Below the pieces are notes generated by a model, which saw only the letters and a list, made by a program, of their open reading frames with translations, searched no databases and was not told the DNA's origin. Shown here in pieces: positions 8,401 to 40,134 of a stretch of 43,151 nucleotides of DNA. The stretch is from Catajapyx aquilonaris (lineage: Eukaryota). The DNA lies in the NCBI GenBank assembly GCA_000934665.2, contig JYFJ02003378.1:1-43151 (forward strand), read 5' to 3'. Position 1 is the first letter of the stretch. Each line of letters begins with the position of its first letter. Both the position numbers and the translations under genes were made by a program.

Positions 8401-11400
8401 CTTGGGAATACTACGAGGGGAGTTCATAAAGTTCGCGCCTTTGGGTTGACGGAAATGAGAGAGACGGTTCAAATTGCAGACATGTACGAGTATTAATCCT
8501 TCTCTCTATATGAACTATGCAAAGCCACACATTTTTCCCAGTGATTCACGACCTGCGGGACACCATCATTGTATAAGTCGACACTTTGTGCTTGAAAATG
8601 GTTTTCAACCTCTGTGATCACCCCCTCGTCGCTTTCGAAATGTTCCCGCACAGTGGTTGCTTCAAGTGGTAAAAGCGGAAGAAGTTCCCAGGGGCGAGGT
8701 CTGGGGAATACGGCAGATGGGGCAGAATATGTACTCCAACTGGCCTGCAAGTGCCACAGTTGCATGGGCAGAATGAGCAGGTGCATTGTCGTGCACACCT
8801 TGCGTCACCATTCCTCTTCTCTTCAGCTTGATCAGGTGATACAGCTTTTACAGGAGATCTTGATAATACTGCCCTGCGATGGTCTGACATTTTTGTGCCT
8901 AATGAGTCAGAATAAAATCCCCGGGAATCCCAAGAAAAACACTGAGCATAACCTCCCCAGATGATGATGGCTGCATTCTGCCCTTCTTTGGCGGTGGAGA
9001 GTTTTGAGTGTTTCCACTGCTTGTTCTGCAATTTGGTCTCTAGGTCGTAGTAGCACACCCAACATTCGTCCATGATCTGAGGAGTCGGTTGAAAAAAACA
9101 CCATCTTCGGAGAGGAACATCGCCAACATTTCCTTAGCCTTACCCAGGTTTAAAACTTTTTTCAAGCACAAAGTGTAGACTTCGACAATAATGGTGGCCC
9201 ACAAGTCGCACATCGCTGGGAAAAATGTGTGGCTTTGCAGGATTAATATAGAGAGGAGGACTAATACATGAGTGCAATTTGAACCGTTTCTCTCATTTCC
9301 TAAAACCCAAAGGCGCAAACTTTATGAACGCCCCTCGTAAATATGCGACCTGCGCACTCGGTTGCGCTCACTAAAAAATTGATCTATAGGATCTTGGCTT
9401 TGGCATCAAGTCAAGAGGAATTTAGAAATGGTTGCTGGTGGATACCCTGACGACTATCAAGTTTGCATAGTTACACGTGTAACTGAGGCAAAGTTTGAAT
9501 ATTCTCCATTTCATCTTCACAGCAACGCCAGGGAGCATAAACTACATAAGAGGCGCAAACTTCTGTCGCCGCCTTTGATGTTCGCGTCTCTCTGTTTATA
9601 GGGCGTTGCCAAGGCTGGCGGCCATTTTGAAGTGTGTGGTAGGCCAACGACGTATAAATAGGGTACAGGCAGGCCGTCAAGGTCCGCGGGGGTCCACCAT
9701 ATTTGATGGCTTTGGCGGCCATGGCAACTACACGGCAAGAACACGCGCGAATTTGAATTCGATATTGGAATGGGTGAGTAAATTGTTATTGCCGTGGCAG
9801 CCAAAACCATCAAAGAAGGCGGACCCCCGCGGACCTTGACAGCCTGCCTGTACTCTATTTATACCTCGTTGGTGCACCACGCTGCCAGCCTTGGCAACGC
9901 CCTATAAACAGAGAGACGCAAAAATCGAATGTTTGCGCCTCTTATGTAGTATATGCTCCCTGTCAACGCAAGTAAAACACATCATTTGGCCTGAAATGTG
10001 TTTTCGCTACGACGCAGTACTCCAAGCCACGAAAGGTATAGCACTGCTCTCAGTTTCTGCAGTTAACAATAGCTGCCATTAATGACTCTCTTACACATGA
10101 AAACGCAATTAAAGATGGATATTGCGTAAGTAATCCAAAAATTAATACTGGCAGCTCTTTTTCTCAGAAACGGACGGCTGCTTACTCCCATGTGCATGGA
10201 GTTGTATGGCATCGAAGTCTTAGATTAGTCTCCTCCTCACCTTTCCTTGTTGATGTTGTTCTGTGTTGTGCTAAAGACTTGCTCATGCAGCTTCTTCTCA
10301 TAGTCCTGGTGCTTCCCTTGCTGCATCTCCTCCTTGGTGAAGCTGGCCTCCTGCTCCCCTGCAAACAACAAATACAGACATCACAATATGGTCTCATAAG
10401 ACTCTCATGTCCTCCACAAGCGAGACTTACCCAGCTCATGCAGGTACATGCAATCAGACTTTGGGCACGCCTGGTTCTTCATGAAGTGCGAGCAATACTT
10501 GGTTGTCCCCAGTGAGGCCTTCAGCGTCTTCCCATCCACAACAATGTTGTTCACGTTGTGGATAGCCTTCAGGGCGTCCTCTGACTTATGGTAAGTCACG
10601 TACGCAGAAGCACTTGGGCCTTGAGTGCCAGCATACGAGGAGCTATGGTTCACGACCACCTTGTGGATCTTGCCAAACTTTCCGAAGTAGTCAGCCTTCC
10701 TCAGAACCTATTGACGGGCATAGATGTGGCATTAATAACGTGGTTCCAATGCAAATAGCAGGTCCATGATGCTCAAAGTGGCATAAATAGGGAGGGATCA
10801 CTGGTGAGGACATCACATCTACATGCATTGCATCAGTAGGGCTAACCAACTGTTCAATATAACAACGAGGGGTCACCCCGAAACTGGACTTTGGACTACG
10901 ACTGCAACTCTTCTGAACACTCTAAATGCCCTTGTACAGTTGCTTGTTTCACTGCAAAATCTCCGTCACTTCTATTTTTAAAACATGCTGCCATTGTTGT
11001 AACTGGAGATGTCACGAGTAATGATAGAGAGGGAGGTCAGGTTGGAGGAGGTGGGGGCACCACTTCCCCTTTCCCTGCATTATAAACTGAGTTAACGGCA
11101 TTTTTATCGCAGCGCATATCACATTTCGGACACTGAAGACCCATACCTATGCATGGAGACATTTATCGCAAAATGTTCCAATTTGGAGGCAGTGGCCGTT
11201 TAATGTAAATTTTGCCCTGTGGTGATCCCAGCTCAGAAACGACCTTTTCAGCTAATTTTCACATGACCTAAGCCCTTTACTCCTCAAAGTGTGTGGATTT
11301 GCTGGAACAAAACCATTATTTGCCTTCTATGTACTACATTACTTCCTTATCCCAACTTCTGATTATTCAACTAAGCTATGGAGAGGTCAGTAGTGAAATT

Positions 11401-13242
11401 CCCTGTTTTCTCTCACTCACTGTGGTTAGTCAGAAAGAAACACGAGTGCCCTGCCTTGGTCTCAAGGCCAAGTTTGACTTGTATCAGTACAAGCGTTATG
11501 ATCTCCTGCCCAGTCCTACATCTCAAACATAAGTGTCCTTGGGATTCCAAGTGTCACCAAAATTTGAGGGTGCTGTCACACTTTCCACGTCTGTGTTATC
11601 TTTAAACGTAATGCTTGCACTTGTAGCCTGACTCTTGGAGAGTGCATACCCTGACCCACTTTTCTCCTGCTGACAAGGCCAAGGTTACCATATGGAACTG
11701 AATTAATCATCATTTTGCTCCTTCAAATTACTGCTTAATAATTATAATTGCCTTTCCTCCTTGTCTGAAAGCAACTAAAATTCGCACTTCTTTTTGTTTC
11801 GCTTGTGTCCCTTACCTCAGCATCTGCCAGCCTCTGTGGTAGCCCAACGACGAACACTAGGTTCCGCTGGACAACCCTGACATTGGCAAGCAGGCGGCGG
11901 TTCTCAGTGAGCTTCTGCTTCCTCTGCGAGTCCCTGTGCCTCTTTTCTGCCTTCAAACGCACTATTTCCTCCTGGGTCAAGGGCTTGAAGTCTGCCGGAT
12001 TTTCAGGATATTGCTTGCGACACGCTGGACACAGGCCGTTCTCATCAGTCCGGATCCGATGCCAGCAGAAGCGACATATCTGCCAAAGAAATTGCAGACA
12101 TTGTCCTGAATTGCTCATCAAAACAATGGAGATGGCTCGGCCACACTTAAGCAGTGGCAATGATGCAGCCCCCTAGTAACCATGTTAGCCCATCCCAACC
12201 TAGGGAACAAAGGAACATAATTTGACCCTGCCCTATTGTTTCTTATCAGACACTTGTTCTCATTACTAATGAAACTTGGCACTTCTTCGAAACTTGTGCC
12301 TTGCTCATGCACTGATACCACAAGGCGTAGCCATCTGCAATGAACTTAAAATGGCTGTACCAAAGGACAGTGCATTTTCATTGCGCTGAAATGCCTGATT
12401 TTCCCCGAGTACAACTACCCTTGCTGAATCCTGTCATTCATCACACAGTACTGGATACCTTCGCATTGTATGGCCATCCAATCCGCACACGTTGAAGAGC
12501 AATACAACAGACTCCTGCACAAGCCCAAGGCTGTTTCGTGTAACATCTCCGCCTCACACTGGCCACTTGATGATTCTTCTACGCACAATTCACAATGGTT
12601 CCAGATTCTCAGTACTGTTAACTTGTCAACAAACATTTAGGCTCCGATGTTAGCCTTGAACCTGACCCAACTCTCACAATGAGCTAAAACCAATCCATTT
12701 CCTTTGACAGGAGTAAATGAACTTCTGCACAAGCTGCTGACCACATGGTTTTAATGGTCAAAAACAGCCATCAAATGTGTGGTAAACTAGCCATAAGGAG
12801 AGACATTAAAAGTTTCGCTGCCAGCTGAGTCATGCACCTCTTCTGGTAGGTCCAGTGCTTCCAAGTAACAACGCCTGTCAGTTAAGAAGCCAATATCCAA
12901 ATTAACAACTTATTTAATTAACTTAATAATCCTAATAATACTGCCGTTATAATATGAAGCCACTGAACAGGCTCACACTTGCAACGGCCATCATTGCCAA
13001 TGTTTCTTTAAATAAGGAAAAAGTGCTGCCCATTCCACACAAAAGAGACTCCGTCTCGCTGAAAGGAATTCCTAGGGATAATCACTGCTATGCACTTGCG
13101 CATCAGGCAAGAACAAAAGTGTCAGAATTCGTACCTGGTACCCGCACGTGCATGGGAAGAAGCTGAGGTCGTCCACCTCGAGTGGCTCCATGCACAAGGG
13201 ACACTCCACCTGCTCCTCTCCACTCTGGTTCATAACGGACAT
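5490..13242 (-). CDS. CNOT4: CCR4-NOT subunit 4 (RING E3 ligase with RRM and C3H zinc finger), ~1030 aa
   Basis: Exons 13242-13135 (CPLCMEPLEVDD..CTCGYQ), 12079-11816 (ICRFCWHRIRTDENGLCPACRK..VRVVQRNLVFVVGL), 10707-10431 (YFGKFGKIHKVV..ASLGTTKYC..CMYLHE), 10358-10241, 8288-7468, 7146-6580 (DWQAAFGF, DDLGFDPFHETQKALAEIMEKE), 6501-6034, 5959-5490. All splice phases are compatible; the extreme C-terminus is less certain. Confidence 0.95.
8414..9337 (-). mobile_element. Non-autonomous mariner element with a degenerate transposase and extended inverted ends
   Basis: TA target duplication (8412-8413 and 9338-9339); TIRs cgaggggagttcataaagtt / aactttatgaacgcccctcg; frameshifted transposase fragments DECWVCYYD, PHLPYSPDLAP and WEKCVAL. 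Confidence 0.9.
9529..9962. mobile_element. Fold-back MITE with ~200 bp imperfect inverted arms and CAGGG...CCCTG termini
   Basis: cagggagcata...tatgctccctg; internal blocks such as tctctctgtttatagggcgttgccaaggctggc recur inverted; flanks gcaacgc / tcaacgc suggest a 7 bp TSD with one mismatch. Confidence 0.8.
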
Positions 13243-14965
13243 TATGTCTTCGCCTATCTTTGCTTCTTTCTCTTGTCAAGCTCCACTTGAAAAACTGCGC
13301 TGCTGCTGCTGCTGCTGCTCCCAAGCGAGAGAGTGTCGTTCCAAAAAAAAATACGCTCGAGCAAAATCAGTCCACCTGAAAAAAGAAGCGGGTGTGAAAT
13401 GCAAAATTATTGGCAGAAGGGCAATCCTGCAGCACTATTTTGGGAAGTGACATGCATGCAACCAGCTTTTTTTTTTTCTTTTTGTAAAGCCCATCAAAAC
13501 CTGTTCTCTTAGACTTTCAGGCATTAGCAATATGCACACAGGTGACTCAGAGAATTATCACTAATACAATACACAGCTTCCTTATTTAAAAATAGTATCA
13601 AAAAATCTCAAGGTTGGCAGGAAATAAACAAACTACAACAACTGGAATGACCAGTAAATCCTGCAGAATAAGCCAGCAGAAAGTGAACAAAAATAATTTT
13701 AAAATCACCAGTGACACTTCCTATTCCGTGCTAATGGACCAACTGTTGACCCTCAAACAATGACACTTTGGGGGGGGGAAAAATCAGTGGTTTACAAAAT
13801 ATGAGACAAAATCCGAGTTTTCATGACTACAAGTTTCGGAGCCTCTGAATGAAAACTGCAGGTCGGAAAATGTTCCAGGATATTCATTCTGTCCTACTCA
13901 TTAACTCCAGAAGATTCGCCATTCATACACCATATGTCATAGCAGTGTAAGGTGCAAGTTACATATATTTGCCTACAACCAAGGCCCGACTTTCTAGCGT
14001 GACAAAATAATGCGACAATAATCAGATCCACTTTCCTGAATTGTAGCTAACAAGGCACTATCTCAAGACGATGATATTATTCAGGCTTTGTGCAAAGCAG
14101 CTCACGATGCAATTATCACGTCGCTTACACTGACACCGTCAAAGGTGTGCAAAGCACGCCCTTGTCCCTTGCAGTCTGGTCACTACTCCAGTCCACATCA
14201 CTTGAATTTAACCGCACTCGATAGTCACTTGACCAAACAGCAGTATAATTATTCACTACTATCTTAACAACATTGATAACGTGGCCAAAATTAACTCTGC
14301 CCTCTTGGGCCTGTCACTTTCCAACATGAAGCGCACACTGCACCATTTCCACACCCTGAGGGTTGCACCACGTCAAGAATTCTGTGAATTAGCCCGATTG
14401 TCACCGTCCTAGGCAAGCCAGTGCCTGGTTCCAATTGTAACAGATTGTCCCATTGTGAGCACGCGATTCACAGAAATGAAATCTACATAATTTCCCCCTA
14501 ACAATTAGCAAGTCTTCACCCACCGTACATCTGGCCTAATCACCTTATCACGGTTATCACATTGCGACAAAACATGTCAAGAATGGAAATTTCCCCCTTT
14601 GCTGACCACGTCTGTCGCACTGCATTCCAAAATTGAATCTGCAATGACAAAAATATTACAAACTACTCGTCGCTAATGACAAAAGGACGCTGTCAACCTT
14701 TGTTTTTCCACGATTTGAGTCATGGCCACGGCCAGCACCATCATGTGTCATTTCACATTCTGACAAAACGGCGAACCCATGGGACAAGTGGCGTCCGAGT
14801 TATATCGGAAAAGCAAAATGTGTTTGCATCAGGTTTCTTTTGGCTCTCCTGTAAAATTATGCAGATGATGAATTCATCATGTTAGCGACGTACTATCCGC
14901 CATCAAGCGTGATGTTACAGGCCTATGACAGGAGTAAATGGGGTAAATCACTCGTGAAGTCCGCT

Positions 14966-28249: not shown

Positions 28250-30115
28250 ATGGCAGCCTCACTCCCAAATCATCTGCCAGAGTCCTTCGACAATTGTAAC
28301 AGAGATTGTACAGAAGAGAGCGAGACAACTTCTGATGGCACAGAGATGGGGATTAGTGTCCCTGACTCTCATCATTTGGACATGTTGCGCCAACTGGATG
28401 ACTTCCGCCACTCCTCCATTTTCTGTGATGTCGATCTGATATGCGAAGATGGGACTTCTCTTAAGGCCCACCGAGCCATACTTGCAGCATCCAGCCCCTA
28501 CTTCAAGGCCATGTTTTCTGGGGGGCTGGCGGAAGAGGGGCAGTCTCGGGTTCCCATACATGGGGTGTCGTCTGCATCAATGAAGATGCTGGTTGATTGT
28601 GTGTATACTGGACGCATGGAGAAGTTGTGTCAAGGTAATGTGGGGGAGGTGGCCGCGGCAGCCAACATGCTTCAGATACACACGGCTGAAGCCCTGTGCA
28701 CCAAGTTCATGAGCCAACATCTGGACAAGTCCAATGCAATTGGTGTGCACAGATTCGCCACTGCATATAACTACACCAAGTTGGCAAATTTGGCCTCCAG
28801 ATTTATTGAGGACAACTTTGATGCTGTTTCTACTTCAGAAGAGTTTATGAATCTGTCAAAGGAGGATCTGCCACAGTACTTGATGAGCAGTAAAATAAAC
28901 TGCGGTAAAATAAACTGCCGTAGGGAGGGAAAAGTCTTGAGAGCTGTAATTGCCTGGATTGAAAAGTCGGTAGAGGAGAGGCGGATGTATGCACATGAAC
29001 TGTTGGAGTGTGTAAAGTTAGCAATGATACCATACAGCACCATTTATGACACCATGTGCAATGATGCTGCCCTGAAAAGCATTCTGAAGTGTAAGTTTGG
29101 GGATGTGGGAAAGAACTCTGAATCAGTGGTAGCAGGAAAATCTGGGATCACAACTGTCATATATGTAGTTGGAGGGTGGGAGTATGACACAAGGCAACTG
29201 ACACCAGGAAGAAGATATCCGAATATGATACTATCCAGAACTGTGTGGTACTTAAACATGCTTTGTGGCACGTGGCACAAGTCAGAGGGTGTGGGGTTCA
29301 GTGATGACCGGCATATTACTCGAGAGAATCCTAGCATTGCTGCCATTGGATTTACTGTTTACCTGGTAGGTGGTATCTCTGAAGATGGGGAATGGTTGGA
29401 CTCGTATGATTTTTACCACACAAGTGAGGAAACTTTGTTTAAGGGTGAGGGCAGACTGGAAGTCGGACGTTTTTATTTTGGCCTGCAAGAATTAAATGGC
29501 TGCTTATATGCATTTGGTGGAAGAGATCGGAATTGGACTCCCCTTGGGAGCATTGAAAAGCTTGATCCCAAGAATGGTGAATGGCATGTGATTGGCCACA
29601 TGCCCAAAGCAAGATATCTCATGAGTATTGTTTCTTATGGAGGTCTGATTTATGTGATAGGTGGGCAGGATCATTCACATGTTCATTCGAAAGAGTTGAT
29701 GTCTTACAATCCAGAAACAAAAGAGTGGAAAACACATGCTCCCTGGTTGAATCCACGCTCGAGCGTGGGAGTTGCTGTCCTTGATGGCCACGTGTATGTT
29801 GTGGGTGGAATTATAAGTGTTGGGGAAGACATATTACCTTCAGATGCAGTGGACAGGTATTCTTTTGAGAGAAACGAGTGGACAACGATCCCTCCTTTGA
29901 AGCAGGGGATCATGAGCCCAGGAGTGGCAGCTGCTAATGGCTGCCTGTATGTTCTTGGTGGACAAGTGAGAGGGGAGAATGGGGGGGTGGAGATGACTTC
30001 TGATGTTGTGTATTATAATCCCGAGACTGGTGAATGGAACTCAGGGATATCAATGCCAAAACCCCATTGTGAGTTTGGAGCATTTACAGTACAATATTGG
30101 ACTGCCCAATATTGA
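28250..30115 (+). CDS. Kelch-like protein (BTB-BACK-Kelch, probable Cullin3 adaptor), 621 aa, intronless CDS
   Basis: BTB motif DVDLICEDGTSLKAHRAILAASSPYFKAMF, a BACK region, and six Kelch GG motifs (IYVVGG, VYLVGG, LYAFGG, IYVIGG, VYVVGG, LYVLGG). First in-frame ATG at 28250 follows an acceptor at 28240-28241; a probable 5' UTR donor is at 27895. Confidence 0.92.
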   Translation: MAASLPNHLPESFDNCNRDCTEESETTSDGTEMGISVPDSHHLDMLRQLDDFRHSSIFCDVDLICEDGTSLKAHRAILAASSPYFKAMFSGGLAEEGQSRVPIHGVSSASMKMLVDCVYTGRMEKLCQGNVGEVAAAANMLQIHTAEALCTKFMSQHLDKSNAIGVHRFATAYNYTKLANLASRFIEDNFDAVSTSEEFMNLSKEDLPQYLMSSKINCGKINCRREGKVLRAVIAWIEKSVEERRMYAHELLECVKLAMIPYSTIYDTMCNDAALKSILKCKFGDVGKNSESVVAGKSGITTVIYVVGGWEYDTRQLTPGRRYPNMILSRTVWYLNMLCGTWHKSEGVGFSDDRHITRENPSIAAIGFTVYLVGGISEDGEWLDSYDFYHTSEETLFKGEGRLEVGRFYFGLQELNGCLYAFGGRDRNWTPLGSIEKLDPKNGEWHVIGHMPKARYLMSIVSYGGLIYVIGGQDHSHVHSKELMSYNPETKEWKTHAPWLNPRSSVGVAVLDGHVYVVGGIISVGEDILPSDAVDRYSFERNEWTTIPPLKQGIMSPGVAAANGCLYVLGGQVRGENGGVEMTSDVVYYNPETGEWNSGISMPKPHCEFGAFTVQYWTAQY

Positions 30116-31301
30116 TGTGAAAGTGTCTCAATGCAGTCTTATGGTTTTTTTCAATCCGACAATGTGATGAGAGGATAATATGAGTTCACAGGATGGATTC
30201 ACTATTTTATCCAAACCTCCATTTTAGTAGGTAATGATTTAAAATGTTAAAACTCCTTACCTATTTTGTTGGAATGGTTGCACTGTGGTGTTGGATCATT
30301 AATGAAGTGTCATACTTTTGTATGCTGAGAGATATTTGCATAATTATTTGATAACAGTATAAGAACAACATCCCTTGCAGCCATCCCCATATAGTGGCCT
30401 AATATCCATGATGTAGGAAGAAGGTTTGAATAAATTGGTCACAAGCAATAATTTCAATGCCTCTTATTAATTCAGTGGGTTATTATTATTAATGAGAAAT
30501 TAGAAAGTGTGTACCCAGTATTGTTAAGGCGAAATTAATCTGATTTGTGTTGTTATATTTTGATCTTTGAAAACCGGAAATAAAGAATGGTTTTTTTTAC
30601 TATTAATCAGATATTAATTTTTGTACCCTTGGCAAGCATTGATGAAGTGAAAGTATATCCCTTCTCCAACTGGGTATGACAAGATGGCACATTCTTCGGG
30701 AGAGATCCTCTGAGGTGGGTACTCGTGACTATACCAAGGGCAACATGAAATGTTGGTGTGGGAGTTCACTTGCCAAAGTGCCCAAGTCTACTGATTTAGA
30801 CCTTCAATAGACCTATTAGATGATGTTTATGCCACTATAGGTGAGTATAAGGATGCCTTATGAGCATCATAAACCGAGAAACTCTTAGTTGAGCAATTAC
30901 GCCTATATGCAGTTTTTAGTCTCTCCTGAAAAATTTCACCTCATAGCCCTTTGGGAAGTGACGTCTTCAATTTTATTTGTACATTCTTTTGATGTAAACC
31001 TATCAAGCAATTTTGTATTGTGCAACTTGTTGTAGATCATTGTTTGGTGTGCGTTGTACTCGACAAATCATGAGCCAGTAAGAACTTTGTGAGAATGCAG
31101 TACCTGACATTATTTTTCATTTTGCAGGAAAGATTGATCAATGTAATTGATTCATGACAGGACAAAATAAATGCGAATGGCAAGACATGTGATAAGGACT
31201 GGTTCCCATTATTTGTTGCTGCTGATCTGTTTGCATGTTTGAGTGGGAATGAACCAAAGAGCACCTAAGGCTACTAAGGCCATCACAGGTTATGAAGATG
31301 G

Positions 31302-31761
31302 GTTCAGAATTGTTGTTATTTCCTCCCTCTGCCTTCTACGCTCTACGTGCTTCGGGGGGCTACGCAGACACTGCTTCTCTACCTCTCATCACATTACATC
31401 AACCGGGCTTTAGTTAAAAACCGAAAGAAAGTAAATAAACTAGCACAATTTTTGCTAATCACACGTATAATATGCCATGGGCTTAAAACCCGGTTTTGGA
31501 ATCATTTGCACATCCACGTACATAGGCGCACTGGTGCTGCCAATATATTGCGAATGAATGACACCCAGTTGAGTTTGTAAAAATTTGAACGTGCCAAAAT
31601 TTCGCCACGAAAACAATGCTGTAATGCAAATAAAATGCTACATGTTACATTAAAAAATTGGTTTATTTTCATTGAATTACAGTGTTGTAAACAATGCTAC
31701 GACTACAGGTCATATTCACTGGTGACTTATCTTGCAGGCACATTTCTCAAGATGAACACAT
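31302..31761 (+). repeat. Diverged direct repeat, copy 2; contains a minus-strand AATAAA at 31662-31667, a probable polyA signal of the gene to the right
   Basis: Aligns by eye with 26150-26615. Confidence 0.85.
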
Positions 31762-32048
31762 TTCAATCTCTAATAGGTTTTTAAAAACTACAATCTCTCC
31801 CTTACGTTTAGAACAGAAATATTTTTTAAAAATGCAATGGATGGATGTAACTGGACGGAAAAGTTTAACAAGATATGTTTCTTTTCATCAGTGACAGGCT
31901 TTGGGAATGAAACGTTTACTGGACGGAGCATGTCGAGATCGCGATGCTTTCTGGGCACTATTAAAAAATACAATGTTTGGAAGTGTCTTCAGTTGGTAAT
32001 AGCTATCGCATTTTAACTCCAGTATAAAAAGTCCGTATTAATCACTCA

Positions 32049-35000
32049 TCAGCGAGCCAGTAGACAAACTGCTATTGAAACTATTGCAATCCAGGCAGCA
32101 GGCGAGTTTGAAACTCCTGAATCTCCAAATCTGAAGACACGTCTGTGGGCTTCTTCCACGGTCCATGGGTTCTCTCCGTCATTAAAATACATGGGGCATT
32201 GGTCACCTGCAAATGGTATGCAACAGTAAGAGCAAATATATCTTTCCTTCTGATTTCAGAAAGCGATTAAAATACATATTTATGCTTGGCTAATTAATGA
32301 AACCTGAGACACTCACGCTCTCTCTCATACTCATCCATGACGAGAGAGACGCCAGCTCCCTCTGTGTAGTTCCAGCTGCCGACATCCTGGTTTAGGTTGC
32401 AGAAGGGCCCCACTGATTGCGACATGATGACCCTGTTGAGGTCAGCTCTTTGGTACACCCAGCATCGGTACTTGCTGAATGCATCCAGTTCGTCGTAGGT
32501 AATTAGGTATGACTTCAGGTTTTCCTTCCAGTATCCTATGCACTTCATGCGGTAGTCCGGATCACCTTAATAAAAAAATGTAACAATGCTTAGTGCCTGT
32601 AATGAAATGATTATTTCAGGTGATCATGCAAGAACATGCAAAGCAGGTGTAACACCGAGCGGCAGAAAAGCGCAGTGATGAAGGGAAAGTGAGCTACACA
32701 ACCGCACCAGAAATGTATGTGTGAAATGCATGGAAAATAGGATCCATCATGGGTAGATAAGCCCTTATGCCCTTCTGGATTAATGATGCCATGTTTATTA
32801 AAGCCAATGCCTGTATGATTAAGTGGCTCACTTTCACTTGACTCCACTTTATGTGTTACCAACACTAGGAAAAACTAAAATCTAAGTGCTCAGTTACAGG
32901 TTTTATCACAGTCACCAGATTGTTATTATAATACGTATAAGATCTTTATAAAAGCACGAGCATGAAAGTGCTATAGAGGTACTAGGTGGAACAAAAGCAT
33001 ATTCACTGATGCTGGCCCCCTTTTTACTTCGACTTCAAGTGTAGCAAGGAATCAAGTTTCCTGTCAGAAAACGCATAATGGGCCACACCTTCAAAATTCA
33101 AAAATATGACAGAAATTGTCAGCTAACTGTTGTTCGACCCAGTCCGTATCAAGACCCACACAAAATAAATCATCGCCTTCCACTTCAGCCTTCTTTTAGT
33201 AGGGTCCCATTCATTAAATACACCTCATCGACTCTCTCGACTTTCCTAACTCTACATCTCTTACTATCACCCTCAGAATGCAACTATTTATAATGGGACC
33301 CACAATATTACATTTTTGTGAGAAATTAACCCCATTCTCTCAACTATAAGTATAATATTTTTATGCAGTTGAGTAGCAAATAAGAGCTGACAACTGAACA
33401 TATGTAGTTAAAGTTATCCACAGTTATTAGTATTTTTAGACACAAATAAAAGCAATATGTACAAACAAAAAATACACAGCACATAATTGCAGTTTAAAAT
33501 CATGTAAAAACAACATCCCTGCCCTAATACATATTGCATTGTATATATTTTAAATACAAAAATCCTCACAAGTTATTGTCCAATAATCTTCACCCAATTT
33601 TTTTTAGATACATCACCACCAAGAGTTGAAGTGAACCCTCACCTCATCACTCACACTCAAAATCACAAGCATTCAAAATCCATGCGCTGCTGGTTGTATT
33701 GGATTAATTTAAAATAAAAATGTTAAAAACTCGTGCTGTTACTGTCACATGAACCTCGGTCAGCTTCAAATTTTCTATTTGGACCATCAAAAAAAATTTC
33801 AATGGCATGCTTTTTGAAGCTCATACAGCATTTTAAAAATTCAAGTTCATCCTATATTTTTCGGGACAATACCCCTTTAATATCGCCCAAACGAAGCACG
33901 TGGATTTTTATTACCATTGATAAACCTCAATCACACCATGAACATCAAATTAGTGCCAGAGAATCCCTCAGTCATTAAACTCAATTTTGACAATATGAAA
34001 ATAAATAAATAATAAATCCATAACCTAAAAAAAAACACTGCAGAAGAAATTAGGTATAAGACACGAAAGCATAGAAGCCACATCACATGTACACAGTAAG
34101 CATATTTACATAGCCAAGTGGTCGTCAACCATTTTGGAGTCATGGAACCCTCTAGCTTTTCACCAAATTTTGCCTGACTTCTCAGATCAAACCCTGCGTG
34201 ACCCAATTTTTCAAACACTGCACGATGCTCCATTCTCAGGTTATTAAAAGGCAGTTGTGAGTCTGGTAGTACACTAAGTACTCGTTTTACGCACCTGCAT
34301 TTTATGCCGTTTCACATTAACAACGGTTTGAAAACAATGTTTTAACAATTTTTCATTGAAAAGTGGTTAACAATTTGACGATAACAACACAATTTAAACA
34401 TAACCACATCACCATCATAAATTCTCTTTTTTGTTTTTAGTGGTGCCTGTGGCGGGGTCTATCGATAAATACAGTACTCGGCACTCTCCGAAGTCTGTTA
34501 AATACCCTCTTCTGCAGTTCTTGCCAAAAGAAAAGAGATCTCAGAACCCGATAAGCCACGACTTGGAACCTCCCATCAAATGTGCATAATAAATGTTTCA
34601 AATAGTTGGCACTAAAATCAGCAATTTAAGGACAGTACTGTCTGAGAGAAAATTTACGAAATCTTGGAACCTATCTCATTTCCTTCCATTATAATTTTGT
34701 CTCGTTTTACGCCTTTTCACTTAATGTCTTTTCACTTTACGTCACATTTTGCTGCAACCAATTACCAGCGTAAAACGGGTCCTACCTACATAATATGTAT
34801 AAATTGTCAACAGAACAATTTCCATGATAAGTTCAAATGTAGCGGAAACCTGTGTATTACAGAAAGTTTTCACAAAATGGAGCAATTCCACATACTTAAT
34901 ATTGACCAATTAGCTCTATGGAGCCCTTCAGACACACCAAAGGATACTGGAAGTCAGAAGCCCACCAGCTGAAGACCACCATTTTAACATATACAGGAAG

Positions 35001-38000
35001 AAGAACAGAAGCGTAATTACACATATAAGTCCAAAGTGTTCACAAAATATTTTGCGAAAAAAATTTCAGCTCATAAGACATTCCATTCACACAGTGACAC
35101 TTCACCAAAGTTCCACGCAATATTGCAAAAGCAAAAAAGCAGCAACACCAGATTGGCAAAAAATAAGGATCAGTGCCAACACCACAGTGCAGCAAATGTG
35201 TCAAAATTTTACTGTAGATGTCGATAGGCCTTCCCCTGTAGTCAACTGATAGGCAGTAGTTCTCATCGATTGTGATGACCTTCTGATCAGTGTCGCACAC
35301 AGAGAAGTCTGATATGTTGTGCAGGCAGATGACCTCAGGTCGTGGGGATTGCGTCACACCTCCCAAAATCCTAGTCTCAAACAGGACGTCTCCTCTCTGG
35401 GTGAAGTTGAACTTGCCAGCCACTGGGCAGCGAACAGGCACAGGGTCCCTTGCTGGGATGCATGCATATGTGACAGTTCAATTAATAACTAGCATGACAC
35501 TCCAGCTGCCTTTTGGTTCACACTGGGTCACACTGTGTCACTCAAGAGATCAACACTCAAGAGGTACTGGAGAGGTGGTGCAGTGCTCGAATGGCATATG
35601 TCCAGTTCCAAACTTTTCAATATTCATTAGTGTGTTTCGACAGCAGATTTCTTGTCGTAAATATAGCAAAAGGCAGAAGATGACTGCCTCTACAAAATTA
35701 ATTTGTAGAAACTGGTGACAAAAAACTATGCAACAGCGTCTCATGGCTGGCACGTAATATTCTCACAACTTTACACTGGACAAGACTGCACCAACACTGC
35801 ATCTCTCTTGAGAACCGCATTTACACCTTCGGTACAAGCCAGTGAAATCCACTAATGGCAAACTCATTAACAAGTCCAATTTTCACAAACCACAAGTTCA
35901 CAAAGAGTGCATTTCTGCCTAAGACCAAGCATTAATTTCGCTGATAACAAGAAATTTTGGTCCATTTAATAATGTCATAGGTGAATTTCAGTGCATTCCT
36001 TAAATACTACGTACACCTTAGACATACATGCTGCATATTTCCCACTTGCTGAAACCTTACAAGAGAATTAAGCAAGATTAGTTATTCAGGGGAGTGGCTT
36101 TAGCCACTTGAAACCTTTCTCGACGTACTGTATATGTCAATTGGCCTCCCAAGCTGGTCGACCGACATGCACTTGTTGACCTGCACCTCAATAATCTTCT
36201 GTTCAAGGGCGCAGTTTTTCAGCGATGAAATGACATCAGGGCATCTGAGTTGAGGCCTAGGGCTTAAGGTTACCCCTCCAATGAGTCGAGTCTCAAGGGA
36301 CATCTCGCCCTTTTGGACAAACTGGAAAAAGCCAGCCACAGGGCAACGGATTGCTTCTGGCCTCTTGGCTGGCATGTCAGCGGAATAAATAAACTGTGGC
36401 ATTAGTAAAGGCTTAGAAAATCAGCATGCAAGGCAGTGCATGCTAATGGTCACACCTGAAACATTTCATCGTAAGACATGGTGTCACCAACAATCATCCT
36501 GCAACATTAGCATTGCAAAAATTCATTTTAACCCACACATTTCGTAAAACTAATTTCAATTCTCTGCTGCAGTGAAATATTATCTGAGATGCAGAAACAC
36601 TAGTCACAATGGATACTCATAGAGTGAATTCAAAAAAATAATCACGTTTTGCTACATCTGGATGCTGAAACCATTGATTCTCAGGCTGATCATTACCGAC
36701 AATTACGTGCAAGTCATAGCCAATCAATTTAACCATTATATGGTAACTTATGTTTTCTGATGTCAATTCCAAATGCTTTCTGGTTGTAATATTTAATATC
36801 TGATCAGCAGCTAGACGACTTGTAAAAGGTTGTAATTGGCTCTGTCATGGCATAGTGTATGACTTCACTTTGTCACCAGAGATGGTGTAGGTATTAGCAA
36901 CTTCATGACTAGTGCAACAGTATTAAGATGTAGTAATCATCCATAATACCTTGTAATAAACAGCTGTGACCAGCAGTCACAAGCAGGTGCTCCTTCTAAC
37001 TGACATTAACCACCTGCAACAACATACGTCCATAACATTGTACACCTTCACATAAAGTCGCTAACTCCTTGATGGAAAAGTTCCCGAACATTAACTCTTA
37101 GGGCTTTCTACAGTGAACCACAACATGCAGTTGCTGCCTAGTGACTCACCCAGATAGATGTCATATTTCCACGACTGCTTGTTGGGGAACTGGACCCACG
37201 AACAGACAGTGGCCCAATCATTCTTGATCATTGCCAACCCCTTCCTGAACCGGACGACGTTGTGATGGCGTGGAACAAACTCAAAGCAAACATAGTCCTT
37301 TTGACTGGAAGTGAAAAATACAACATTTGAGGAGAGTCAAAATTTTAGGATAACAATGGTCCAGACATTTAAAAGATTCATGTCGCTATGAATGATCTAC
37401 CAGTTTGATTGTTCAATTGTATTGTACAATTTCACTTATCACTCTTTGATGAATATGACTGAAATTATCCTCACCATCCATCAACCCCAAGTCTGGCCAT
37501 CAGGTAGCGAGTGTCCCTTTGCGCTTGGCACACGTAGATGGTTCGCCTGTACCTCCCCTCATCCGGATACCACGTCTCCACTATGTGGGTCTGATTGATG
37601 AACACGTCCGCATCCAAGTTGGCCGTATTGATCCAATCACCACTGAAGTTCTGCGGGAGGTTACACCCAGGGGTCACCACTTCTGCCTTCACTGAAAATA
37701 ATCAGAGAATGACATGAGTAAATTACACAAGACTAATTGTGGTACTCATTTAATACAAACCTGGTGTGATCCTCATCCTCTCTGGGCTGTTCTCAGGTGT
37801 GTTGAGTACGTTACATTCAGCTGTGATCGAAGCCCCGATGTACAGATCATCATCCCGGTTCTTGAGAAAGCAGCGATACTTCTCCTCTTTCCTCGACTCC
37901 TTGGTGTTGGCAGTCGCAAAGAAGTGGTTCTTACCCACAAACCAATCGCCAAGGCACGAATACTCAACAACGCCATCAAAGGTCTCCGTCATTCCCTCGC

Positions 38001-38769
38001 ACGCTCGATAAGTAATATTAAACTTCTGGTTGAGAATAAGAAACTGCGAGCCCGGAGTCTGGCAACTCTGTATCATCGCTTCGGGGTTGTTGCATTCACC
38101 TGTGAACCTGTAGCGGTTCTGGTACCCAAATTGCCACACTCCCTCCAGACTCGAGCGGCAATTTACAGGCACAAAATTCTCCTGGAAAATACAGAACAAG
38201 TTATAATCAGCTTCCTGCTAAATCCGACGTCACAATTACGGTAGCGGAAAACTTCAATGTGTCTTACCTGAAAGAGCGTGATGAGCTGCTGGCTTGGATT
38301 GAGTTTGCTGCACACGTTGTCCACTGTTGGCGGAACTCCTGGTCCGAGGCTGTTGCACCCGCTCTCCACCTTGTCCATGATGTTGATGGTCCTCACAACA
38401 AGCTTGACGCAGTAGTAGCATCCACCTTCCTTGAACACGAACGTGTAGTTGGTGTGAAACTCCTCCCGCATGGACACGCACCACCCTTTCCCGGTCATGG
38501 AATCCGCATTGATCTCCGTCAAAGTGTTGTCTCCATTCTCACGTGAAAACCACGTACCCCAGATGTGCTTCGGAATGTGGCAAGTCTCATCCACACAAGC
38601 CGACAAGTTGAAACAGCACGCTGCAAACACATACGGATGGTTTTAGTCATAAGTAATTAGTAATATTAAGTGTTCTATGAACGAGTCATGAGGCGTATAA
38701 TTCGGGGTAACGCCCTAACTCACCTACGATCAGGATGGAGGCGATGGTGGGCCACCTCGTCCCCTCCAT
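32049..38769 (-). CDS. Secreted Cys-rich, probably GPI-anchored protein resembling the Drosophila Undicht/CG10217 family; ~612 aa with one of two alternative exons
   Basis: Exons 38769-38724, 38620-38268, 38181-37761, 37691-37475, 37304-37150, [36368-36129 or 35452-35213], 32565-32317, 32206-32049; all phases compatible. N-terminal signal peptide (MEGTRWPTIASILIVACCFNLSA); C-terminal small-residue site plus hydrophobic tail (GDSGVSNSPAAWIAIVSIAVCLLAR*). The family name is from memory and unverified. Confidence 0.85.
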
Positions 38770-39500
38770 CTGTCCCGTTCCACAGCTCCCGAACAGCGGA
38801 CAGTGTCCAGTTAAAAGAAGCGGCCAAAATACCAGCAGGCCAACGCCCCGTTCCAGTGAAACCTGCCTACCTGTACTTATTAAAAGAAAAAGAAGAAAAC
38901 AAAATTGGGGGCGCGTTTTACGCTTCTTTTGTAGAATATGTGACGTCATTTTCCTTTCTGCCATCTAGCGGTGACCACGACAAGTACATCTACTGTATCC
39001 ATCCATTACAGTAGTTTACGACTTGTATTAAATTAAATATGTAGAGAAAATTAATCAGTGAAAGTTAACATGTTCAGCTTACATTAATTAGCACATTTTT
39101 TGGCAAAAGGGCTCATTTATTCGAACCTGTAATGGCTCGTACATTACATGTCGGCGGTACTTTCAATTGCTTTGTATGGCCGAATTTGTTATTTTATTGT
39201 TTTGTGTAATTGTTATTGTATTTTATGTATATGTTATTTTCGTAGGGTTTTTTTTTTGGGGGGGGGGGNATCAGAATTGCATTGAATCACAAACCTTTTG
39301 ATCTGAACCACATTTTTTTTGTAATGATGACCACAGCTGAGACACTGACTTCGCTTTATTATACAGGGTACTGTAAACAACAACAAACTGTAACTTAAAG
39401 TGATAAATGCAGCACAATCATTATGATCAATATTTCTAACTGTCTGTGCCCATAAGACAACACTGCTAATTATCAAAAAAGAAAAGTTCACAGATAAATC

Positions 39501-39547
<47 letters not shown>

Positions 39548-39550
39548 TAT

Positions 39551-39584
<34 letters not shown>

Positions 39585-40134
39585 TTATATAATTATATTA
39601 TATAATATAAATATATTATATATATATATTATATATCTATATTATATTATATTATATTTATTATATATATTATATATTATATATTATATATATTATATAT
39701 ATTATATATATTATATATTAATTAATATATATTAATAATTATATATTAATTAATATTATTAATATAATTAATATTATTAATATTATTAATTATTAAAATT
39801 ATTAAATTATTAAAATTATTAAAATTTATTAAAAAAATTATTAAAATTATTAAAATTATTAAAATTATTAAATTATTAAAATTAATAATTAATATTATTA
39901 ATATAATTAATAATTATATATTAATTAATATAATTATATATATTATATATATATATATATTATATATTATATATATATATATATATTTATTATATATATT
40001 ATATATATTATATTATATTATATTATATTATATTATATCTATATATATTATATATATATATTATATTATAAATATATTATATATATATTATATAAATATA
40101 TTATATATAATATAAATTATATTATTATATAATA
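39501..40134. repeat. (ATT)n/(AAT)n microsatellite followed by ~550 bp of almost purely A/T low-complexity sequence
   Basis: Direct reading; only two C bases within the tract (39637 and 40039). Confidence 0.95.

Follow-up and report, generated by a model that had tools for sequence, protein, structure and literature searches.

The undicht ortholog of the window

A stretch of 43,151 nt from Catajapyx aquilonaris (contig JYFJ02003378.1, positions 1 to 43,151 of the forward strand; hereafter the window) carries on its minus strand an ortholog of the Drosophila gene undicht (udt), identified by profile matches and homolog names, and within this gene lies a tandem pair of 240-nt exons, A and B, whose alternative use is the subject of this analysis. 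The Pfam domains DUF7044, DUF7042, DUF7043 and DUF7042/7045 follow one another on successive minus-strand exons, which is the domain order of udt orthologs, and the precomputed domains on the homologs form the same set. A search with exon B as query returned 237 proteins at E<=0.001 among 276 candidates; the 120 matches listed are all from arthropods, mostly ~610–620 aa long and 71–83% identical across the exon, and their names include 'protein undicht' and 'uncharacterized protein udt'. The orthologs measure 606–622 aa, against 612 aa for the window product. The constitutive part of the gene shares 75% identity across 372 aa with P0060, a dragonfly protein that bears the name udt, and 70–75% across ~370 aa with the 25 best insect homologs among the matches listed, and the window sequence falls inside the udt family in a gene tree. 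Judged from sequence, domain order and the closest named relatives agree on udt orthology.

The exon structure was read from transcript data of one public run, X1, of unrecorded library type and stored as contigs, which were mapped on positions 31000-39500. Such contigs show presence, not absence: rare variants are dropped, and uncovered parts of introns are not evidence of absence. In the X1 contigs every predicted intron is removed at GT..AG sites, which shows that X1 derives from RNA; the listed differences from the window are confined to 31049-31118. All exons lie on the minus strand. The first coding exon (38724..38951) is set by the contig joint 38620/38724 and, provisionally on its 5' side, by contig cover to ~38951, and contains the likely start codon at 38769 (MEGTRW...), from which a 612-residue product is read. 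It is followed by the constitutive exons with DUF7044 (38268..38620; PF23071, E 6.9e-18; contig joints and AG/GT sites), the first DUF7042 (37761..38181; PF23069, E 2.3e-31; contig joints) and the first half of DUF7043 (37475..37691; PF23070, E 2.1e-07, profile positions 2-54 of 104; contig joints). The second half of DUF7043 lies on the exon just upstream of the pair (37150..37304; tblastn, 70% identity to residues 348-401 of the homolog P0003), whose donor joins either A or B (joints 36368/37150 and 35452/37150). Downstream of the pair come the constitutive exon with the second half of the fourth domain, of DUF7042/DUF7045 type (32317..32565; PF23069 positions 56-109, E 1.3e-08; PF23073; contig joints), and the last exon (31707..32206), placed by a contig and the joint 32202/32313 with a cut of +4, which contains the stop codon (32051-32049), a tail resembling a glycosylphosphatidylinositol (GPI) signal and the 3' untranslated region.

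The N-terminus of the protein is hydrophobic and resembles a signal peptide (MEGTRWPTIASILIVACC...), and the C-terminus (GDSGVSNSPAAWIAIVSIAVCLLAR) consists of small residues followed by a hydrophobic tail, so that the termini fit a putative signal peptide and a putative GPI signal. Petri et al. 2019 (Cell Rep 26:1641), cited in PMC12487505 and PMC12822584, name Undicht a GPI-anchored protein in their title, and it is cited as a septate-junction protein; its role in Drosophila is taken here from that cited title and one sentence in PMC12822584. The product had been described as GPI-anchored in an earlier reading of the DNA made without database searches (the sequence-only reading), and this description fits both the udt orthology and the small-residue stretch and hydrophobic tail of the last exon. 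The window protein shares with Drosophila Undicht the order DUF7044-7042-7043-7042/7045, a length of ~610–620 aa, the signal-peptide-like N-terminus and the hydrophobic C-terminal tail. In contrast to the listed pterygote proteins, which have one B-type module, the window gene adds exon A and thereby two isoforms.

Anatomy of the exon pair

Exon A (36368-36129) and exon B (35452-35213) are each 240 nt long, preceded by AG and followed by GT, and have phase 1-1, the first two bases completing a codon and the last base opening one. They encode AKRPEAIRCPVAGFFQF... and ARDPVPVRCPVAGKFNF..., respectively, which are identical at 42 of 80 residues (137 of 240 bases) and align four Cys at positions 9, 43, 53 and 67. 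The positions, length, phase, cysteines, splice sites and translations by which the sequence-only reading had characterized the pair all hold, as does its remark that the copies differ at many positions. A is the divergent type, with an open frame of exact length and the invariant motifs CPxxG, SPRP and GRPxDIY, and B is the conserved type. Synonymous divergence between them is saturated (dS 2.5), with a nonsynonymous divergence (dN) of 0.46. A tblastn search with a full-length homolog found no third copy of the exon in the window, which thus holds exactly two.

Both exons match, weakly (E 0.0098 and 0.019), the N-terminal half of DUF7042 at profile positions 2-50 of 123, and the next exon downstream matches positions 56-109 and also DUF7045. 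Because A and B match the same half of the profile, their similarity reflects homology rather than chance, and because both cover positions 2-50 and the next exon 56-109, they are alternative N-terminal halves of a domain that needs one copy.

The two modules also differ in predicted N-glycosylation sites. Exon B carries the sequons NFT and NIS, and exon A has no N-x-S/T, so that the confinement of sequons to the second exon was correctly noted for the window species. The predicted glycosylation difference stands for this species and fails as a general difference between A and B, as A-type exons with an NIS or NVS sequon occur in collembolans and Artemia and NFT is missing from the B-type exons of branchiopods. 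What separates the two types in general is residue 14, Lys in B and hydrophobic in A, together with the motif SDFSVC in B, which is SS[LFV]xxC in A.

The introns around the pair are long, as had also been pointed out. I1, upstream of A (36369..37149; joint 36368/37150; CT..AC on the plus strand, i.e., GT..AG on the minus strand), I2, between A and B (35453..36128), and I3, downstream of B (32566..35212; joints 32563/35211 and 32563/36127 with a cut of +2), measure 781, 676 and 2647 nt, respectively, compared with 103, 86, 69, 170 and 110 nt for the five other introns defined by spliced contigs.

Transcripts with one exon each

Run X1 contains both forms of the transcript. One contig has the joints 37150/36368 and 36129/32565 and thus links A to the constitutive exons on either side (word depth 6.1), and another has the joints 37150/35452 and 35213/32565 and does the same for B (word depth 26.1). 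Their short flanks, of 29 and 24 nt, would fit a bubble with two paths in an assembly graph of k=31. Neither a joint between A and B nor a joint of the upstream to the downstream exon (37150/32565) is among the listed X1 contigs, contigs being unable to exclude rare forms, and no listed contig shows I2 removed alone. Both isoforms exist in this run, with one copy of the module each. The pair consists of homologous neighbours of equal length, phase and splice sites, each joined to both constitutive exons in X1, and the mutually exclusive splicing proposed by the sequence-only reading is supported by these two contigs and by the lack of a listed A–B joint. A and B are very probably genuine alternatives of the udt ortholog that are essentially exclusive, and their exclusivity may be strict. 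The depths give a rough hint that B is the major form in the X1 sample.

The product of the gene would be a secreted, GPI-anchored protein of four beta-rich domains, in which the first half of the fourth, membrane-proximal domain comes from either A or B. With a single exon of the pair in each mature mRNA, two 612-aa proteins would be made that differ only in an 80-residue module. B would represent the conserved default and A the fast-evolving alternative, and in the A form of the window species both N-glycosylation sites of the module would be gone and Lys14 and SDFSVC replaced. The isoforms may therewith differ in binding or in glycosylation at the junction.

Several observations weigh against exclusive use of the exons. 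The transcript evidence comes from a single run of unrecorded library type in the form of contigs, in which rare forms with both exons or with neither are possible, and depths of 6.1 and 26.1 are only a rough guide to the isoform ratio. A full transcript with A only has been seen in no species besides that of the window. In another species, the transcript-like contig L004 (94-2386), from which all constitutive introns are gone, has the upstream exon spliced to A and B spliced to the downstream exon, with the 313-nt intron between A and B retained; it may be a dead-end intermediate with both exons or a chimeric assembly. A genomic counterpart of L004 exists (L009), and a further contig of the same species, L003, is clearly chimeric with an unrelated open reading frame.

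These observations could also be accommodated if A and B were independent cassette exons, with appreciable double inclusion (giving a duplicated half-domain) or skipping and with the two contigs representing the commonest paths. Such mRNAs would not be removed, as the frame is kept with both exons (752 aa from the first Met, in line with the earlier note that double inclusion preserves the frame) and with neither (592 aa); I2, at 676 nt, is long enough to be spliced, contigs omit rare variants, and L004 holds A and B together with its I2 retained. However, both X1 contigs are unbranched, each passing through a single alternative exon between the two flanking constitutive exons, no A–B or 37150/32565 joint is listed, and one N-terminal half suffices for the domain. 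We therefore regard independent cassette exons as improbable.

Candidate mechanisms of exclusivity

The open frames with both exons and with neither mean that nonsense-mediated decay (NMD) gives no back-up, as the sequence-only reading had anticipated, and I2 is too long for steric hindrance between the splice sites. All donors begin with GT (GTACGT for A, GTAAAA for B, and GTGAGT) and, compared with the U12 consensus, are unlike the U12 type. NMD or a frame shift, steric hindrance and U2/U12 incompatibility are thus excluded as enforcers, and RNA structure or trans-acting factors remain candidates. The acceptors of A and B are pyrimidine-poor (...GCTGACATGCCAG and ...GCATGCATCCCAG, respectively), whereas T-rich tracts occur in four of the five listed constitutive acceptors, that of the last exon being less T-rich. 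Pyrimidine-poor acceptors such as these are typical of regulated exons, and the choice between A and B may be made at splicing through weak, regulated acceptors, possibly together with a helix between I2 and I3.

Pairing between introns was assessed by an ungapped-helix score against dinucleotide-preserving shuffles, 40 for each intron pair of the window. The best helix was matched or beaten by 38 of 40 shuffles for I1–I2, by 30 of 40 for I1–I3 and by 1 of 40 for I2–I3. The best I2–I3 helix has 25 bp, is GU-rich and pairs 36049-36025 in I2 with 33485-33461 in I3. Among eight other loci with the exon pair, one of 14 intron pairs stands out, I2–I3 of locus L002, reached by 1 of 200 shuffles. The I2–I3 pairing is a hint at most of a looping-out device; such a helix would loop out B and draw the donor of A toward the downstream exon. 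With the I1–I2 and I1–I3 pairs at chance level and the I2–I3 helix equalled by one shuffle in 40, the enforcing mechanism is still a candidate, which is a further point against an exclusive switch.

Other searches for intronic signals returned little. A repeat search found inverted and direct repeats only as short matches of 70–90%, and a scan for 30-nt window duplexes gave best-scoring windows of about -25 kcal/mol, which, without a shuffle control, are non-discriminating. Three candidates were set aside: whole-intron duplex folding as a statistic, which captures global pairing and whose real values were reached by 2 of 13, 10 of 13 and 5 of 13 shuffles; a 16-nt match between I1 and I2 (36702-36717 with 35743-35758, 14 of 16 pairs), estimated to be about at chance level over all intron pairs; and an apparent small inverted copy of the ends of the exon (34446-34477), at chance level (E 5.4). 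Across five cladoceran-like loci no conserved block was found in I2 (mean column identity 45%), a recurring TGATTGG motif finds no complement in the flanking introns, and introns from related loci of different species cannot be aligned. Separately, I3 of the window gene contains a 39-nt direct repeat (34281-34319 and 34701-34739, 420 nt apart), and several X1 contigs near 34565-34711 match only in part, with loose ends; the repeated element at 34281-34739 is probably a dispersed repeat or transposon fragment.

Structure of the alternative module

The fold of the module was examined on homologs. The fourth domain, taken from an aphid-like fragment and folded in isolation, reached a predicted local distance difference test score (pLDDT) of 50.5, with 24–64 in the part corresponding to the alternative exon, and the full-length dragonfly homolog P0060, folded with 60 aligned sequences, reached 84.7, with the alternative-exon part mostly confident. 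In the dragonfly model this part spans about residues 399-478 and forms strands at 412-419, 444-449 and 457-465, followed by a linker into the strands of the next exon. A long loop holds the most conserved motif, FETRILGGVTxSPRP, at pLDDT 57–72, and terminal helices occupy residues 4-25 and 591-612. A Foldseek search against the PDB gave no credible match, the best E-value of 1.5e-05 being accompanied by a template-modelling (TM) score of <=0.14.

Occurrence in other lineages

The exon pair is found outside the window species. Five of the 208 stored homologs with a match contain the module twice in tandem, the divergent copy first and the conserved copy second: the proteins of Lepidurus arcticus (P0004, 700 aa), Artemia franciscana (P0005, 673 aa), Eurycercus lamellatus (P0006, 672 aa, first copy partial), Orchesella cincta (P0007, 708 aa) and Allacma fusca (P0008, 438 aa). 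These gene models share with the window the same exon pair in the same order and differ in joining both copies in one protein, ~80 aa in excess of relatives of 606–629 aa, whereas the window transcripts carry one. We infer that the two-copy models are probably prediction artefacts, over-predicted by ~80 residues. The homologs also bear on the cassette alternative: no second copy occurs in the pterygote orthologs among the matches listed, and the five two-copy proteins are gene models only.

An exhaustive HMMER search with exon A as query returned 90 proteins, the best of them 58% identical, and several of the matches are short genomic open reading frames with A-type signatures. A metagenome scan yielded 24 loci, of which nine have A followed by B, one ends after A, 12 have B only and two are unrelated. 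The nine tandem loci (L002, L004, L005, L006 with a partial A, L007, L009, L017, L020 and L021) are cladoceran-like and collembolan-like, with A and B spaced by 171–430 nt; the contig that stops just after an A-type exon is L022. In the eight tandem loci checked, L004 being left out, the AG/GT sites and the phase are kept wherever the contig shows the site, and the exon length is 240 nt, the exception being a B match in L017 that measures 249 nt. Of the B-only loci, eight are genomic sequences that include the upstream constitutive exon; no remnant of A was found in their corresponding intron (best E 0.078). They comprise L011-L015, which are termite-like (95–96% identical to cockroach), one locus nearest to dragonfly and two from other arthropods.

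Age of the pair and selection on A-type exons

An exon tree was built from 46 modules, 18 of them of A type. The A-type modules form one clade (ultrafast bootstrap 89; Shimodaira–Hasegawa-like approximate likelihood ratio test, SH-aLRT, 76; present in 90% of 200 bootstrap trees), and among the B modules those of hexapods separate from those of branchiopods. Forcing A and B of the window to be sisters costs 10.45 log-likelihood units (approximately unbiased, AU, test p 0.0315). Window A has signatures common to other A types, a hydrophobic residue in place of Lys14 and SS[LF]K/R.C, and shares PRPQL.C with collembolans. In a quick gene tree of the constitutive part, the window sequence groups with collembolans and branchiopods, split by a branch with SH-aLRT 98 from all 22 pterygote rows. 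The pair is likely ancient, and the best reading of the sequences is a single duplication before the divergence of branchiopods and hexapods, with the pair kept in non-winged lineages and lost in winged insects.

Three points temper this reading: window exon A sits on a long branch (1.3 to 1.43), so that long-branch attraction may aid its place in the A clade; window A matches other A types at 35–47 of 80 residues, no nearer than its own B (42 of 80); and the support for the A clade is moderate, with an AU p of only 0.03. The same points would be expected from independent duplications in the window lineage on the one hand and in branchiopods and collembolans on the other, with the A clade as an artefact of long branches that meet in the tree, where support of 89 and 76 is not decisive. 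Tandem exon duplication is, moreover, a recurrent event. Separate origins nevertheless seem unlikely in view of the same order everywhere, divergent upstream and conserved downstream, with the same length and phase, the signature residues common to A types, the AU result against sisterhood of window A and B, and the saturation of synonymous sites between them.

Exon A might instead be decaying or noisy, with B as the sole functional form and the use of A in X1 as splicing noise. A is the more divergent copy (54% identity to an aphid protein, against 71% for B, and a best database match of 58%), its branch in the exon tree is long, its contig is the less deep of the two, and one A-type exon elsewhere contains a stop codon. 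But A keeps an open frame, four Cys, invariant motifs, AG/GT sites and the exact length, and it is spliced on both sides at about a quarter of the depth of B. In other lineages A-type exons are under strong purifying selection, and their length, phase and splice sites are kept in all loci examined. The A-type exons of L007 and L020 have dN 0.045 and dS 1.35 (omega, their ratio, 0.033), and the near-identical Daphnia-like A-type exons of L005 (1563-1802) and L022 (691-930) show 19 base differences, with 18 synonymous codons, no missense and one nonsense change. The pairs of other lineages thus place A-type exons under purifying selection, and a decaying exon A is very improbable. Two reservations remain on this side: selection on exon A of the window species itself is extrapolated from these lineages, and L005 has TGC>TGA at a conserved Cys, which may reflect a sequencing error or, in one lineage, loss of the A isoform through a null allele.

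Taken together, the preferred history would be a single tandem exon duplication before branchiopods and hexapods split, followed by purifying selection in branchiopods, collembolans and the window lineage and by loss in winged insects. The full picture of an ancient pancrustacean Undicht switch, lost at or near the origin of winged insects, that offers two versions of the membrane-proximal domain, lacks a textbook fail-safe and maybe uses the I2–I3 helix to loop out B is tentative, and we would not expect every part of it to hold.

Relation to known systems and significance

Dscam1, 14-3-3zeta and Mhc are examples of mutually exclusive exons in arthropods. Like these tandem-duplicated sets, the window pair consists of homologous neighbours that match in length and phase, places one exon in each mRNA, swaps a domain module and has long introns. 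It differs in comprising only two variants, in a length that is a multiple of three, which leaves NMD without a role, and in that a docking-site and selector pair is not demonstrated for the window gene. Mutually exclusive exons from tandem duplication are already textbook in arthropods, and the udt pair is a new instance of a well-known splicing phenomenon. Dscam is named in the abstract of PMC4691838, and the general mechanism is described in that of PMC6071210. A link of undicht to alternative splicing was not found in the literature searched, with many journals and supplements outside its scope.

Undicht belongs to a small set of secreted or GPI-linked factors required to build septate junctions, which form the epithelial and blood–brain barrier of arthropods. 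If the reading is true, two junction variants would be made in many non-winged pancrustaceans, perhaps specific to tissues or junction types, and one in winged insects, Drosophila included. The 80-residue module offers a defined target for tests of partner binding or glycosylation, and a frame-preserving pair with long introns is a case in which exclusivity must rest on RNA structure or factors. There is also an annotation problem, since public models of several branchiopods and collembolans include both copies and are probably ~80 residues too long; the EOG-style names of the branchiopod entries suggest that the udt gene presumably serves as an orthology marker.

Neighbouring features

Minus-strand open frames at 10405-13275 include one with a RING-like motif (CPLCMEPLEVDDLSFFPCTCGYQ) and others resembling an RNA-binding domain; together they point to a putative CNOT4-like neighbouring gene. 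A single-exon BTB-kelch gene on the plus strand (28250-30112, 621 aa) is 33% identical to its best database matches, and its relatives are named 'actin-binding protein IPP-like' or 'kelch-like protein diablo'. Just upstream of udt lies a low-complexity stretch (39234-40132) of long AT-rich simple repeats, which appear as I/Y/N/K codon runs in all frames, and the single N of the window lies near 39270.

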